Made by a program: the position numbers and the translations under genes
Notes under the pieces: model-generated
The model's input: only the letters and a program-made list of their open reading frames with translations
Told to the model about the DNA's origin: nothing
Database searches by the model: none
Sequence record: MW250785
Length of the DNA: 64,000 bases
DNA from: Escherichia phage UPEC03
Strand: one strand, 5' to 3'
Shown: positions 5,880-35,035 of the stretch, one piece after another
Layout: every line of letters starts with the position of its first letter
How positions within the stretch are numbered: the stretch's first letter is position 1

Positions 5880-5958
5880 GTTCTCGTTCCTTTTGGCTGT
5901 TCCGTTTCGATATGTGTAATATAACAAAGCCCTCACCGAGAGGCAAGGGCTTTTTTGA
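5880..5958 (-). promoter_or_regulatory. Terminator-promoter-leader module (copy 1 of 6)
   Basis: Minus strand reads AAAAAAGCCC-TTGCCT-N17-TATATTA-CACATATCGAAAC: hairpin with embedded -35-like TTGCNN, extended -10-like TGTTATATT, conserved leader. Confidence 0.45.
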
Positions 5959-29738: not shown

Positions 29739-30084
29739 CCTTTTCCTGTACAGACATCCGATTATAGCGGATCTCTTCGCGCTGTTCAACTTCTCTCACT
29801 GCTTCGGCTTTCTTTTCAGCGGTGAGTATGTGATGTACTACAGCGTTTCGGATTTCCCAGAGATATTCAATCATCTGCATATCTTCAACGGTGTGGTAGC
29901 CTTTCATATCACATTCAAATACAATTTCATCGCGTTCTGCCATTGCCACCTGTGCGGTAGAAGGACAAATAACCATTCCAGAGTATTTTTCAATCAACGA
30001 TTCCAGTGTACGCGGTTTTGCTGGAATGTCAATAGATACCGGAACCATTCGCATCGTTGAATCATTATGGGATTGGTAAATCAT
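29707..30084 (-). CDS. Hypothetical protein (125 aa)
   Basis: ORF coupled to upstream gene. Confidence 0.45.
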   Translation of the reverse strand: MIYQSHNDSTMRMVPVSIDIPAKPRTLESLIEKYSGMVICPSTAQVAMAERDEIVFECDMKGYHTVEDMQMIEYLWEIRNAVVHHILTAEKKAEAVREVEQREEIRYNRMSVQEKDEAYEVYRRS

Positions 30085-30377
30085 CAGAATGTGATCTCCG
30101 CAAACTGCATTCTACGCTCAATCGCATGGATAGCGTTATCACGCTGTTCTTTGTTTTCATATCCAGCCCAGGTAATCGGAGTTGAACAGATCAGGTGAAA
30201 AGTGATTGCTGGGTGTCTCTTCCCTTCAACAACGATTGTTGCATCATCTTCGATCCAGGTTACGTGATCCAGATTCACCGGATAGTTTCTTACGGTAACA
30301 GTTTCACCAACCATAGGCGACACGTCCAGAATATCACGATCACGAACGTATGATTTAATACGAGATACGATTAACAT
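30084..30377 (-). CDS. Hypothetical protein (97 aa)
   Basis: 1-nt overlap with the upstream large gene. Confidence 0.45.
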   Translation of the reverse strand: MLIVSRIKSYVRDRDILDVSPMVGETVTVRNYPVNLDHVTWIEDDATIVVEGKRHPAITFHLICSTPITWAGYENKEQRDNAIHAIERRMQFAEITF

Positions 30378-31531
30378 TATTTCAACTCCACTGCATATAC
30401 ATCGGTTTCAGGGGCTTTGTGTACGCGCATATCTTTACCACATACCGCATAAGCCGGACAGTTACGGCAACCGTTATGATCCTTGTTGCCCGTCAGTTCT
30501 TTACGGAACTGTTTTGTTTTCGGGTGTTCCCAGATATCCTTCACAAAATCTTCGGCTTCCAGAACATCCAGACCTTCTTCCCAGCCACCTTCAACCCAAC
30601 GTTCGGTAAACGAGCAAGGGAAGAACTGACCACGTTCATTAATGTAAGAGCTAAACATCGTCGCTTCACAGTCTTCGGCGTATTGCTTGTACTGTTCGAA
30701 GTTCGGGTGTCCCTCCATCGCTTCAACGAAAGCGGGGGCTGAACAGCTATCGAATCCAAATCCTACACCAGAATCGAGGCAATATTCAACAAGTTTTTTA
30801 TATTGTTCGCGGGTAACGGTGTCCCAGTTCTTACCGCGTCCTTTTTGTTTCAGTCCCAGGAACACGATCGCGTTGACTTGTTTCAGGCGCGGATCATTCT
30901 TCACGGCATCAACCACGTTAAACGCATCATCATAGGTTTTCGAGCTAACCATGAAGTGAAGGTTGATTTGCTGTTGTCCGGCTTCTGTCAGGTTCGCTAC
31001 TGAGTCGAAAGCGACATCAAAACCAGCGTGTTTATAAACCGATACCGCAACAGCCCCAGCAACCGCCGCTAAACGCGCTGCAACGTCTTTTGATACGTCA
31101 GCAATGGTAAGGTTCGGTACAATGCCTTTAGAACGCGCATACGCCATCATATCGAACATATCAGGGTTTGTTTGCCCCTGTGCATCAGCACCGAGTGCGC
31201 ATTGAGTCAGCCAGGGCATTTTGTCGATGATTTTTTTGAAGTTGGCAAGATCCATGTTGAACCCGTTAGGGTTATTGGACTTGTAGCAGAACCCGCAGAG
31301 TTTACCAGCGGGACCATTACATTTGGTAGTGATCTCAACATCCAAGATTTCTGGGAATGGGGCATAGGTAGGATCAGTTTCGAACGATGTTCCCCAGCGA
31401 GCAAACTCACCAGTTTTAACGTTGAAATTGTAGTTGTACCAATTAGAGCGAGCGAAGCGCATATTACCCTGCTGGTAAATCATTAGCGAAGGGGCTTTCA
31501 TTACAGTCTGTGCGCGGTCAATAATATCCAT
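30377..31531 (-). CDS. Cys-rich protein, radical-SAM/SPASM-like (tentative; non-canonical Cx7CxFC)
   Basis: N-terminal CNGPAGKLCGFCY (aromatic residue before the third Cys); C-terminal CRNCPAYAVCG cluster; 384 aa. Confidence 0.4.
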   Translation of the reverse strand: MDIIDRAQTVMKAPSLMIYQQGNMRFARSNWYNYNFNVKTGEFARWGTSFETDPTYAPFPEILDVEITTKCNGPAGKLCGFCYKSNNPNGFNMDLANFKKIIDKMPWLTQCALGADAQGQTNPDMFDMMAYARSKGIVPNLTIADVSKDVAARLAAVAGAVAVSVYKHAGFDVAFDSVANLTEAGQQQINLHFMVSSKTYDDAFNVVDAVKNDPRLKQVNAIVFLGLKQKGRGKNWDTVTREQYKKLVEYCLDSGVGFGFDSCSAPAFVEAMEGHPNFEQYKQYAEDCEATMFSSYINERGQFFPCSFTERWVEGGWEEGLDVLEAEDFVKDIWEHPKTKQFRKELTGNKDHNGCRNCPAYAVCGKDMRVHKAPETDVYAVELK

Positions 31532-31542
31532 GTATATAGTTC

Positions 31543-31749
31543 TCAGAATTTAATGTGGGATTGGAAAACAGCACGAGCAAGTGTTTCGCTATCGAACGGG
31601 ATTGATGTTCCCTGGTCTTTGCTGTCAATGTTAACGCGCCAGAACTCACTAGACCCGTTTTTGGTGGAGTAATGCATCAGCGTTACCGTCTTATTCTTTT
31701 CCAGGAAGGTGCGTTTATCAATCTCTGTTTTTATTTCGTGCTGCATCAT
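31543..31749 (-). CDS. Hypothetical protein (68 aa)
   Basis: Coupled small ORF; weak similarity to ORF 32073-32273. Confidence 0.4.
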   Translation of the reverse strand: MMQHEIKTEIDKRTFLEKNKTVTLMHYSTKNGSSEFWRVNIDSKDQGTSIPFDSETLARAVFQSHIKF

Positions 31750-32006
31750 TTTACACTCCGTTTCAGTTTACGTTCGTCAGCCAGTTCTTTTTTGTACGTT
31801 TTGATGTACTTCCCGTTAAGGATGCGAAGCTGTTGGAAAACTTTGTTGCACAAAGCACGTTTTGCTTTGTATTCCTGCGTATTACGGATTGATTCGACCG
31901 TCATACCCATTTCGTTTTTAGGGTACGCGCTCAACTCCCTGCCGATCTCTCTGTGCCAGTTGCTTAACTGATCACGCTGTGCTTTGTACTCTTCAAAAGT
32001 TAACAT
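31746..32006 (-). CDS. Hypothetical basic protein (86 aa)
   Basis: Coupled small ORF. Confidence 0.4.
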   Translation of the reverse strand: MLTFEEYKAQRDQLSNWHREIGRELSAYPKNEMGMTVESIRNTQEYKAKRALCNKVFQQLRILNGKYIKTYKKELADERKLKRSVK

Positions 32007-32072
32007 AACAATCTCCGGTTTCGTTTCTATGTGTGTAAGGTATCATTACCCTACACACAACGCAAGCGATTT

Positions 32073-32273
32073 TTATTTTCCGTAAAGAACACAATATTCT
32101 TTATATTTTTCACGGGCTTTTTCTTCATTACTAAAGGAAACTCCCATTCCAAAATCAGAACCTTCGAACGTAACATCCCACGATTCATACCCATCTTCCG
32201 AATAATAGGAAAGTGTTATTTTACGATCTTCAAGAACAAGTTGTTCAACAACAATATCAATTTCAGTAGTCAT
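32073..32273 (-). CDS. Hypothetical protein (66 aa)
   Basis: ATG overlaps upstream small ORF stop (ATGA). Confidence 0.4.
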   Translation of the reverse strand: MTTEIDIVVEQLVLEDRKITLSYYSEDGYESWDVTFEGSDFGMGVSFSNEEKAREKYKEYCVLYGK

Positions 32274-32416
32274 AGTTCATTTCCATAATCTTTTGCTGCA
32301 TCTTCGGGGGTTGCGTCCAGTCGGTAAAGCTCAACGGCTAACGGACTGGGTTTGATTTCGCGGTTCAGGATCTCACTGATACCGCGAAGGAATTCGATAT
32401 AAGGACGGAATCTCAT
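32270..32416 (-). CDS. Small ORF (48 aa, not in ORF track)
   Basis: MRFRPYIEFLRGISEILNREIK...; ATGA overlaps at both ends link it into the coupled chain. Confidence 0.35.
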   Translation of the reverse strand: MRFRPYIEFLRGISEILNREIKPSPLAVELYRLDATPEDAAKDYGNEL

Positions 32417-32664
32417 TTGATACGTACCGCGTTAAAAGCCTGGTTGCGCAGTTCATAAGCCTGTTCAAGCTGTTCTGTAGTGAACAGAGGACTATCGGTG
32501 TTAGTGGTGAAACTGCAAATGGTTTTGTTGTCGGCGTTAACTTCTTCAACAACGATTTCATAACCCCAGATCCCGCTGTACTCACATTTCACGTTACGGT
32601 ACTTGATGTAAACCGCAGCAACATCTTCTTTTTTGTAGTTCCGGCTTTTGTAGATGATTTCCAT
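32413..32664 (-). CDS. Hypothetical protein (84 aa)
   Basis: ATG at 32664 with AAGGAGGA SD; the listed ORF extends upstream through the conserved leader. Confidence 0.5.
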   Translation of the reverse strand: MEIIYKSRNYKKEDVAAVYIKYRNVKCEYSGIWGYEIVVEEVNADNKTICSFTTNTDSPLFTTEQLEQAYELRNQAFNAVRIK

Positions 32665-32730
32665 GATATCCTCCTTCGTTTCGATGTGTGTAATATAACA
32701 AAACCCCTCACCATAGACAAGGGGTTTCTT
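32665..32730 (-). promoter_or_regulatory. Terminator-promoter-leader module (copy 4 of 6)
   Basis: Minus strand AAACCCC-TTGTCT-N17-TATATTA-CACACATCGAAACGAAGGAGG-ATG. Confidence 0.5.
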
Positions 32731-32746
32731 TAACAAAAAGTGCTAT

Positions 32747-33349
32747 TTAATAGTATCCAGGATCTTTGAAGTGTGCTTTCATATATCGCAGAATTTCACG
32801 CAACATCTGGGTTTGCTCATGTCCACACTGTGAAGCCATATCGATCATGACGCGAGTCATTTCGACGTTCTCCAAGCTGGTTATACGCTGTTTTAAGGCT
32901 TTGTTTTCCTCTTCCAACTCAACCATACGGTCATATGCTTTGATGCGCTCCAAAGGCATATCAGGGCGCTGTTTGAGGACACGGGCGCGTGACACTTCGC
33001 ATTCGTGATTTGCTTTCCAGTGATCACGTTCACCAGCAATTTTATCATTCTCCTGGTGTAGACGTACAATCTCTTTAAGGAGGCGTTCAGTGGTATCGGG
33101 ATCAAACGAAACCATGTATTGCATCAGGGATTGCAACCACAGATCCTCTTGTACCGCCTGTAACGCTTTAGGCCCAATAATGGTAAACTCGCGTTTCTTC
33201 ATGTTGCTACCGCAACCGTAGTTAACGTTACCCGCAATCGAACCTGGTTGATTAGTACCATCCCATTTGTCACCGATAACAGGTTTTACTTGCTGAATAG
33301 CACGATTCAGCATTTCGAATTCTTCATCTAAAATCATTTCATATCCCAT
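32747..33349 (-). CDS. Hypothetical protein with coiled-coil region (200 aa)
   Basis: ORF with ATG start. Confidence 0.5.
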   Translation of the reverse strand: MGYEMILDEEFEMLNRAIQQVKPVIGDKWDGTNQPGSIAGNVNYGCGSNMKKREFTIIGPKALQAVQEDLWLQSLMQYMVSFDPDTTERLLKEIVRLHQENDKIAGERDHWKANHECEVSRARVLKQRPDMPLERIKAYDRMVELEEENKALKQRITSLENVEMTRVMIDMASQCGHEQTQMLREILRYMKAHFKDPGYY

Positions 33350-33738
33350 AATTCATATTGTGAGCGAAGGATAGCGTAAAGGCTACCGATATGGATTGTG
33401 TCTACCGGACACTGGAAAAGATCCCCGCGCATCATGTTAAACTCGATATCGTTACGTTCAACATAGTTACCGATCATTGATGTCCAACCCATCACCAGGT
33501 TATAACCATCTTCTGATAACCCATAAGCCAGCCTAACCATGATACAACGCTTATCAGCCAGTTCTACGCGCATATGGGTACTGGTATGAGTGACCTTGTT
33601 CGGGAATCTGCGAAACATTTTAGTAAGGAGTTTGGCGGTTTCAATATTGAACGCCAGTTCTTGATCCTTACTGGTCTGGTTGTCATGACGGCGATTCAGA
33701 TACTTTTCCATTTTTGGGTTGAGATTCACATGTTGCAT
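33334..33738 (-). CDS. Hypothetical protein (134 aa)
   Basis: ORF with ATG start. Confidence 0.45.
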   Translation of the reverse strand: MQHVNLNPKMEKYLNRRHDNQTSKDQELAFNIETAKLLTKMFRRFPNKVTHTSTHMRVELADKRCIMVRLAYGLSEDGYNLVMGWTSMIGNYVERNDIEFNMMRGDLFQCPVDTIHIGSLYAILRSQYELWDMK

Positions 33739-33944
33739 AATATATTCCTCACAGGTTTAAAGCGTTCTTTTCCGGTTCCATTACATGAACTGCATTTCGG
33801 AGATCGGTCGCTATCATATCGCCCAGATCCATTACATGCAACACATTTCCGTAATTTCCAGCCATACACGAACCGCATATAATCGGTTCGTGCGGCCTTG
33901 CGTTCGTGGAAGTTCATACTTTGTTGTAAACCTGAACAACCCAC
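33726..33944 (-). CDS. Small DnaJ-type zinc-finger protein (CxxCxGxG x2)
   Basis: CVACNGSG and CSSCNGTG repeats. Confidence 0.45.
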   Translation of the reverse strand: MGCSGLQQSMNFHERKAARTDYMRFVYGWKLRKCVACNGSGRYDSDRSPKCSSCNGTGKERFKPVRNILCNM

Positions 33945-34117
33945 ATTTCGATGTTCGGTGAGTAAGTAACGTTCACCATCGGCATAGTGCGGTATTTGTA
34001 TGCGGCTTTGTACGCATCGAGTTCAGTCGGAACACAGAAAGAGAAACCGTTGTCATAACGTTCTGCGTTAGAAACTTCACAACCAACTACAGAAGCAATG
34101 TTTTTGTTCATGTTCAT
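33914..34117 (-). CDS. Hypothetical protein (67 aa)
   Basis: ATG at 34117 downstream of module copy 5; the listed ORF extends through the leader. Confidence 0.45.
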   Translation of the reverse strand: MNMNKNIASVVGCEVSNAERYDNGFSFCVPTELDAYKAAYKYRTMPMVNVTYSPNIEMWVVQVYNKV

Positions 34118-34119
34118 GA

Positions 34120-34195
34120 TGTTTTCCTTTCTCTGTTTCGTTTCGATGTGTGTAATATAACAAAGCCCCTGCATTGCTGCAAGGGCTTTTTTCAC
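34120..34195 (-). promoter_or_regulatory. Terminator-promoter-leader module (copy 5 of 6)
   Basis: Minus strand AAAAAAGCCC-TTGCAG-N17-TATATTA-CACACATCGAAAC. Confidence 0.5.
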
Positions 34196-34196
34196 T

Positions 34197-34505
34197 TTAA
34201 TCGAATTTTTCTGGCAACTGGTCTACAAGTGCTTGAGTTTGATGAAGTTCTTCACTCAATTTATCACGATAATGAACCAATTCGCGGGTTCTTGATGCGG
34301 AATAGCTAATGAGTTTATCAGCGGTAGCGGTGTAACCGTAACCAGCACACGCGATTTCCAGTTTTGCGTTATCGCCGTTAGGTACGCGGATATGAGCATA
34401 CGCCAGCAAGTTTTTAACCGCTTGCAACAGTTCATGATCTTCTTTGCCGATGATAAACTGGTTTGGTTCTGCTGAATCCATATACAGTTCTTCGTCTTTG
34501 TTCAT
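34197..34505 (-). CDS. Hypothetical protein (102 aa)
   Basis: ORF with ATG start. Confidence 0.45.
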   Translation of the reverse strand: MNKDEELYMDSAEPNQFIIGKEDHELLQAVKNLLAYAHIRVPNGDNAKLEIACAGYGYTATADKLISYSASRTRELVHYRDKLSEELHQTQALVDQLPEKFD

Positions 34506-35035
34506 TTTGCAGCCTTATACATTTCCAGGACGCGGTTCATGTGATCTTGAGATTGAGGCACACCCGCGAAGTTCAGTTTGATGAAGAATTCCAGACGATC
34601 CTTTTTGGTGCATTCATCCAGCCCCAGGGCAGGTAATGAAATGTTTTCAAAGGCTCGTTGTTCGTGTCGTGGTATTTCGTCCCAGAACAAACGGGAACCG
34701 TCCGGCATAGGAATCCCAATTTCACCTTCGTAGACTTTGATAATCGTCGTCAGGCGTTGTTTGCCGTCGATCACTTCTACCCAATGGGTTTCGTTGAACT
34801 GACTATCAACCGCGATCGCAATGATACCGCAAGGGAAACCACTGATCAGGGTAGTCAGAAACGCATCTTGCTCTTTCTGCGTCCACACATAGGGGCGCTG
34901 GTAAGATGGATTCAGATCCAGATCTTTATTCTTCCACCAATGCAGATAACTCCCAACCATGATCGCGTGATCGCGACTGCGAAAAGTTAACTGATCGCGG
35001 ATACGGTTATGAACCGGAATATCATCTTTAGACAT
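34502..35035 (-). CDS. DUF262 / ParB-like (GmrSD N-terminal-type) domain protein
   Basis: YQRPYVWTQKEQDAFLTTLISGFPCGIIAI and VIDGKQRLTTI (DGQQR-like) signatures; 177 aa, no nuclease domain attached. Confidence 0.65.
   Translation of the reverse strand: MSKDDIPVHNRIRDQLTFRSRDHAIMVGSYLHWWKNKDLDLNPSYQRPYVWTQKEQDAFLTTLISGFPCGIIAIAVDSQFNETHWVEVIDGKQRLTTIIKVYEGEIGIPMPDGSRLFWDEIPRHEQRAFENISLPALGLDECTKKDRLEFFIKLNFAGVPQSQDHMNRVLEMYKAAK

Follow-up and report, generated by a model that had tools for sequence, protein, structure and literature searches.

Five small genes located at positions 31543–32664 of a 64,000-nt stretch of the Escherichia phage UPEC03 genome (sequence record MW250785; this whole stretch is hereafter called the window) form an ordinary section of a T4-type variable region made of small accessory-gene cassettes. 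All five open reading frames (ORFs) are on the minus strand and were designated A, B, C, D, and E in minus-strand order (Table 1). The account favored here as a whole, which is considered likely, is that this variable region is built of cassettes: a translationally coupled A-B-C block is followed by a second, degraded cassette and by the D-E pair, and the gene content is reshuffled through the cassettes. The most instructive details of the locus are the cassette-mediated loss of the frd.1 gene and the cassette-bounded swapping of gene C. Both lie outside the claims of an earlier note on this DNA, which was made from the sequence alone and had described a chain of five coupled mini-genes.

Genome Context of the Locus

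Comparison of positions 31400–32800 with phage genomes gave 172 matching records. The best matches (~96% nucleotide identity) were Citrobacter phages CfP1 and Miller, Escherichia phage RB16, and Cronobacter phage GAP161, and the more distant ones belonged to Slopekvirus. Judging by these similarities, the source of the window is an RB16/CfP1-like T4-type phage of the genus Pseudotevenvirus.

All five genes and the architecture of the locus are already known in related T4-like phages. The genes RB16p157–RB16p161 of RB16 (HM134276) and their orthologs in CfP1, Miller, and GAP161 have the same order and strand, the same ATGA overlaps, and the same gap between C and D, and the encoded proteins are 89–100% identical to those of the window. 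The window differs from these loci in that neither frd.1 nor RB16p162, where the latter is present, stands between the upstream cassette and A. The assignment of the array to a T4-like hyperplastic region, proposed in the earlier note, agrees with the finding that the gene content of the locus varies among close relatives within the RB16/CfP1 group.

Beyond annotation, the importance of the locus is small, as its genes are listed as hypothetical proteins in public records and its architecture corresponds to the described behavior of T4-type variable regions (small early genes, ATGA overlaps, promoter/stem-loop cassettes, and cassette shuffling). Three points may be of modest use: the deletion of frd.1 exactly between two repeats as a clean example of cassette-mediated gene loss, the evidence that the 48-codon ORF and its neighbors are true coding genes, and the C/E and B paralog families as possible candidates in host-takeover or anti-defence screens.

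Promoter/Stem-Loop Cassettes and the Loss of frd.1

The promoter/terminator scan detected a terminator-like hairpin of 13 pairs (32700–32728, minus strand) upstream of gene A. On this strand, the hairpin (32728–32700) is followed by TTTTGTTATATTACACACATCGAAACGAAGGAGGATATC and then by the ATG codon. A −35 box TTGTCT (32715–32720) lies inside the hairpin, and a TG dinucleotide with the −10 box TATATT (32692–32697) is found after a 17-nt spacing. The cassette continues with the leader TTACACACATCGAAACGAA at 32675–32693 and the Shine-Dalgarno sequence AAGGAGG at 32670–32676.

The leader is repeated in the window, with an exact copy at 34137–34155 and a near copy at 5901–5919; five matches were found versus 0.13 expected. 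In total, the window contains three full copies of the cassette (upstream of A, at ~34137–34189, and at ~5901–5950) and one degenerate copy between C and D. The copies at ~34137–34189 and ~5901–5950, also on the minus strand, consist of a CTTGC-containing hairpin followed by TTGTTATATTACACA(C/T)ATCGAAACG, and the −35 and −10 boxes were also found in them, at about 34159 and 5923. Related loci carry two to three cassette copies each. The 17–19-nt leader is unusually strictly conserved both between copies and across two phage genera, which could be explained by gene conversion or by a functional site.

These elements resemble the promoter-early stem-loop (PeSL) cassettes of phages RB49 and phi1, which comprise a promoter, a stem-loop placed between its boxes or over them, and a terminal ribosome-binding site (PMC2839356, Arbiol et al. 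2010; PMC4122927, Comeau et al. 2014). The likeness includes the intergenic repetition, the sigma-70-like promoter, the stem-loop, and the Shine-Dalgarno sequence with a start codon at the 3′ end, as well as the concentration of the cassettes in variable regions beside small orphan genes and the removal of an intervening gene by recombination between copies. In the window, intergenic sigma-70-like boxes face the downstream ORF (a consensus match only, which fits the early-promoter features and consensus of RB43 reported in PMC1524935). The 13-pair stem at 32728–32700 holds the −35 box, and the 13-bp stem between C and D overlaps the −10 box. The motif occurs at several intergenic sites and ends in a Shine-Dalgarno sequence and a start codon, and the junction of the frd.1 deletion lies inside the repeat. 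The sequence of this group is distinguished by a CTTG(C/T) −35 box in the hairpin, a TATATT −10 box, and the leader ACACACATCGAAACGAA, which is strictly conserved; in the window, the C–D copy has, in addition, a poor −10 box and a hairpin lacking a U-tract. The block would be transcribed early in infection by the host RNA polymerase from the promoter upstream of A. The Rfam scan of positions 30000–35000 gave a single match at chance level (18.7 bits versus a gathering score of 103), and a literature search yielded no usable transcriptomes for these phages.

In the relatives of the window (RB16, CfP1, GAP161, and others), frd.1 (Pfam DUF5417) is located between the upstream cassette and A, and RB16, RB43, and phiEap-3 contain one more small gene in this interval. 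In contrast to these phages, the window lacks frd.1 over its full 64 kb. Comparison with CfP1, RB16, GAP161, and Fraggle revealed that the junction in the window is a chimera, the left part of which corresponds to the cassette preceding frd.1 elsewhere, while the right part, GGAGGATATCATG, corresponds to the spacer preceding A. The two halves join inside the shared 17-nt core ACACACATCGAAACGAA in the 32675–32693 region. Contiguity across this junction was found in none of the 172 related records. The comparison indicates that frd.1 was deleted exactly between two cassette copies by recombination, and this is a clean case of such an event.

The Degenerate Cassette between Genes C and D

The intergenic element between C and D includes a −35-like sequence CTTGCG, a 13-bp hairpin at 32030–32059 (TGTGTGTAGGGTA / TACCTTACACACA), a degenerate −10 box TACCTT, the PeSL leader TTACACACATAGAAACGAA at 32020–32038, and a GGAG Shine-Dalgarno sequence for D. 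The minimum free energy of the hairpin is −21.8 kcal/mol (z = −4.65). In the alignment of seven loci, 94.5% of cells were paired and five pairs were changed on both sides, versus 30–64% paired cells in slid controls, which indicates that compensatory changes maintain the hairpin. Upstream of D, this element is conserved regardless of which gene lies in front of it. One of the compensatory changes turned the −10 sequence TATCTT of the relatives into TACCTT in the window; here, the structure seems to have been preserved at the promoter's expense. The A-B-C transcript may be attenuated or stabilised by this hairpin.

Gene Exchange between B and D and Mosaicism of the Locus

Three states of the slot between B and D were distinguished. 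In Margaery, Fraggle, and Rpl1, the slot is empty and the stop codon of B overlaps the start codon of D. In the window and seven of the relatives compared (RB16, CfP1, Miller, GAP161, phiKp_4, Miro, and phT4A), it contains C and the hairpin element. In RB43, Matisse, PSKm2DI, R4_1, and phiEap-3, it contains two paralogs of B. The gene content of the locus is reshuffled by homologous recombination, which acts at the cassette repeats and at the conserved flanking regions. A simple deletion mediated by repeats was sought as the origin of the C-less state of Margaery, Fraggle, and Rpl1; no such event could be read from the junction.

The paralogs of B found in RB43 and Slopekvirus phages are two genes of 65 and 56 amino acids (aa) (phrog_8655) that follow B. 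The family shares the pattern Y..W...V...L and TPE(D/E)A. In RB43 (L010:1841-2357) and Matisse (L011:1854-2364), these genes are joined by ATGA overlaps and occupy the slot of C.

The C protein is at least 95% identical in all 51 carriers across Pseudotevenvirus and Slopekvirus, and the flanking genes diverge much more. By this comparison, gene C looks like a recently spread cassette.

At the other end of the array, gene E is replaced in Miro, Rpl1, and phT4A by a gene of the opposite strand encoding a homing endonuclease (phrog_314, E = 4.8e-24). In Klebsiella phage Miro, this gene is located at L008:465-1193 (+), and it is also found in the loci of Rpl1 (L013) and phT4A (L014). The insert additionally replaces the last six codons of D, and the N-terminus of its product reads YVYRITN...KHYYGS. 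The 5′ region of the radical SAM gene, which follows E in the window, is strongly diverged beside the homing endonuclease gene, a pattern that co-conversion around a homing site would produce.

According to the comparison of identity in 100-nt bins, the locus is a mosaic: from D to A it hardly differs from GAP161 and Miro, and E with the 5′ end of the radical SAM gene is nearest to CfP1 and RB16. In this latter patch, 19–33 of every 100 nt differ from GAP161-like, phiKp_4-like, and Margaery-like genomes.

Paralogy and Possible Functions of the Encoded Proteins

The earlier note had suggested that C and E are small paralogs, and this holds. BLASTP showed 32% identity over 62 aa (E = 8e-7), and the Smith-Waterman score of the pair was 67 compared to 22.6 ± 4.3 in shuffles (z = 10.3; the score was reached in 0 of 2000 shuffles). 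In the same shuffle test, the other pairs among the five proteins showed no similarity. In addition, E matches the PHROG profile of C at E = 0.0045, and the E ortholog of RB43 matches C at 6e-4. Together, these sequence similarities identify C as a real, diverged paralog of E. The motif given in the earlier note, (K/R)(I/T)(T/V)L..(H/Y)YS..G.E.W.V, is right in substance, and its spelling needs a gap of 1–2 residues. Gene A was considered as a third member of this family on account of a similar strand-strand-strand-strand-helix pattern and a shared F-(S/T)-x-E-x-L/A-x-x-A stretch. It was rejected by sequence (hhalign probability 0.5%, shuffle z about 0); its AlphaFold model (predicted local distance difference test score, pLDDT, of 61), in which the secondary-structure elements come in the same order, was too poor for a structural test.

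Relatives of these proteins were found only in the same phage clade, both in the word-index searches with E, A, and the B-family profile and in the search of 1.84 billion representatives with the C/E profile. For gene A, 35 clusters were obtained, all at least 75% identical and confined to this clade. Such small accessory factors, limited to one clade, would most likely modulate host or phage processes early in infection.

The AlphaFold model of E (pLDDT 89.5) contains four strands and one helix and may bear a weak resemblance to nucleic-acid-binding folds; such a sheet with a helix, predicted for C and E, could bind nucleic acid or a host protein. Nucleic-acid binding by C and E can be regarded as a weak lead. 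In its explicit form, it would make them small nucleic-acid-binding proteins of the AP2, integrase-arm, or PUR-repeat kind, maybe dimeric, that act in early DNA or RNA regulation in the phage or the host. This is unlikely, since Foldseek found no significant match to a solved structure (best E 0.2), the viral structure library gave uncharacterised proteins only, and AP2 sequence similarity was not detected by Pfam at E values up to 1. Membership of C and E in the AP2/ERF family (PF00847) was also rejected by sequence, with an hhalign probability of 0.03% between the C/E profile and the AtERF1 domain (the query sequence was checked against PDB 1GCC). Any likeness of E to the AP2/ERF domain (PDB 1GCC, 6SY0), which folds as a three-stranded sheet with a C-terminal helix, would concern the fold only, and E differs from it in having four strands and no conserved AP2 signature.

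A broader version of this idea joins the proteins to the cassettes. According to it, C and E would represent a phage-only family of nucleic-acid-binding sheet-plus-helix proteins that form PUR-repeat-like homodimers or heterodimers and act early. Gene C would be spreading through an advantage, for example, by countering host defence, which would account for a near-identical cassette moving between two phage genera. The leader ACACACATCGAAACGAA would serve as a functional site in RNA or DNA and be more than a recombination substrate. This combination is judged to be quite unlikely.

Gene Layout and Translation Signals

The coordinates of the genes and neighboring features are given in Table 1.

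Table 1. Features of the five-gene array and its surroundings in the window.
Feature	Position	Strand	Description
Gene A	32413–32664	−	83 aa; RB16p161 ortholog; phrog_7818; first cistron of the A-B-C block; strong Shine-Dalgarno sequence
Gene B	32270–32416	−	48 aa; RB16p160 ortholog; phrog_8088; ATGA overlap at each end; no usable Shine-Dalgarno sequence
Gene C	32073–32273	−	66 aa; RB16p159 ortholog; phrog_13594; paralog of E; optional cassette
C–D intergenic element	32007–32072	−	66 nt; hairpin and degenerate promoter
Gene D	31746–32006	−	86 aa; RB16p158 ortholog; phrog_7560; own GGAG Shine-Dalgarno sequence
Gene E	31543–31749	−	68 aa; RB16p157 ortholog; phrog_8584; paralog of C; ATGA overlap with D
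PeSL-type cassette (promoter and stem-loop) before gene A	32665–32746	−	promoter/terminator scan, repeats, junction comparison
Radical SAM protein, SPASM/twitch domain (context, outside the array)	30377–31531	−	384 aa; starts 11 nt past the E stop codon; weak Shine-Dalgarno sequence

The ATGA stop/start overlaps between A and B (32413–32416) and between B and C (32270–32273), described in the earlier note, are both present. A third one, which the note did not list, joins D and E (31746–31749). This junction reads ATGATG, and E could equally start at the second ATG, one codon further on (31746), which would leave a 1-nt TGATG overlap. Such junctions are a general habit of this genome, far above chance and not special to this locus: among ORFs of 40 codons or longer, the window contains 29 of them, including 24 on the minus strand, compared to a mean of 1.66 in 50 shuffles.

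Translational coupling at ATGA stop/start overlaps has commonly been described in T4 and in other compact phage and bacterial operons. The array shares with them the 4-nt overlaps and the downstream genes B and C without a Shine-Dalgarno sequence, and it has nothing distinctive in this respect. The calculated Shine-Dalgarno pairing energies are −11.7 kcal/mol for A, −3.0 for B, −3.3 for C, −6.6 for D, and −6.3 for E; that is, pairing is almost lacking in B and C, and GGAG ribosome-binding sites precede both D and E. The near absence of pairing is what re-initiation after the translation of A would predict for B and C. Taken together, the overlaps and weak sites fit translational coupling, in which ribosomes would load at the strong site of A and re-initiate at the ATGA junctions to produce B and C. 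D and E would be translated from their own sites, with E possibly coupled as well.

The description of the array as a chain of five coupled mini-genes stands as regards the five ORFs and their coordinates. It does not stand between C and D: the stop of C at 32073 and the start of D at 32006 are separated by the 66-nt non-coding gap with the strong hairpin, and the layout is therefore A-B-C, gap, D-E. Full coupling, in which ribosomes pass from A to E without fresh initiation, would agree with the common orientation of the genes and the three ATGA overlaps. It would also agree with the organization of Margaery, Fraggle, and Rpl1, which lack both C and the gap; there, the stop codon of B overlaps the start codon of D (TAATG), and A-B-D-E is continuous. 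For the window it is decidedly unlikely, since the stop/start overlap type of coupling does not describe re-initiation across 66 nt that contain a hairpin of this stability, and D has a ribosome-binding site of its own.

Several points weigh against the favored account of coupled, cassette-borne A-B-C and D-E blocks. The promoter scan overall gave no excess over shuffles (9 sites versus 9.4), so the case for a promoter upstream of A relies not on the scan but on the fact that this site is repeated and conserved. Promoter activity, its timing, termination at the hairpins, and coupling are proposed from consensus matches and by analogy with T4 and RB49. Since the hairpin between C and D lacks a U-tract, termination there is doubtful, and the poor −10 box TACCTT of this copy means that D and E may be expressed by read-through only. 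Sequence searches in Pfam, NCBIfam, PADLOC, and PDB found no match for any of the five proteins. Finally, the copies of C differ by 0–4 nt and are too alike for a substitution-pattern test of coding.

Possible Relation of Gene E to the Radical SAM Gene

In most relatives, the radical SAM gene comes immediately after gene E, and E and the 5′ end of this gene lie in one mosaic patch. The SPASM/twitch domain of the enzyme is common in peptide-modifying enzymes, and E, perhaps together with C, might be its substrate or recognition partner, as in peptide-modifying radical SAM systems. This is very unlikely. Co-occurrence of the small gene with the enzyme across genomes was not observed, as Rpl1 retains the enzyme without C or E, and Miro and phT4A retain it without E. 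E contains no cysteine and is predicted to form a compact domain, unlike typical precursor peptides, and adjacency is expected anyway in a gene-dense phage.

Coding Status of the Small Genes

All five genes are annotated in RB16 (RB16p161 to RB16p157), CfP1, Miller, and every other relative inspected. The 48-codon ORF that the earlier note had presented as unlisted exists as gene B and is not new, being annotated in every relative examined (RB16p160, ABCD_0166, and CPTMiller_00169); it was missing from the list because it is shorter than the usual length cut-off. In the PHROG database, each of the five proteins matches its own family end to end (for B, phrog_8088 at E = 3e-34).

Selection was assessed by comparing the window with 15 related loci, using the differences by codon position and the ratio of nonsynonymous to synonymous differences (pN/pS). 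For gene A, pN/pS was 0–0.17, and in several relatives all 7–9 differences were at third codon positions. For gene B, it was 0–0.42 (0.3–0.4 against distant copies, where the differences by codon position were 12/11/29), and the frame and length were kept in 15/15 loci. The values were 0–0.45 for gene D and 0.14–0.19 for gene E against more distant copies. In A, B, D, and E, these patterns indicate purifying selection and evolution as protein-coding genes.

It is hardly credible that some of the ORFs, B (48 codons) or C (66 codons) above all, are open by chance in a compact genome and are not genes: both are very short and without Pfam, NCBIfam, or PADLOC matches, and the copies of C are too similar to reveal codon-position bias, but B keeps a constant frame and length with differences mostly at third positions and has recognizable paralogs, and C is intact in 51 phage records and aligns with E along its whole length with conserved core residues.

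Outside the array, a 72-aa ORF at 33726–33944 (minus strand) contains two CxxCxGxG motifs (the DnaJ-type zinc-finger pattern) and matches phrog_12902 and, weakly, a Q-like antiterminator family.

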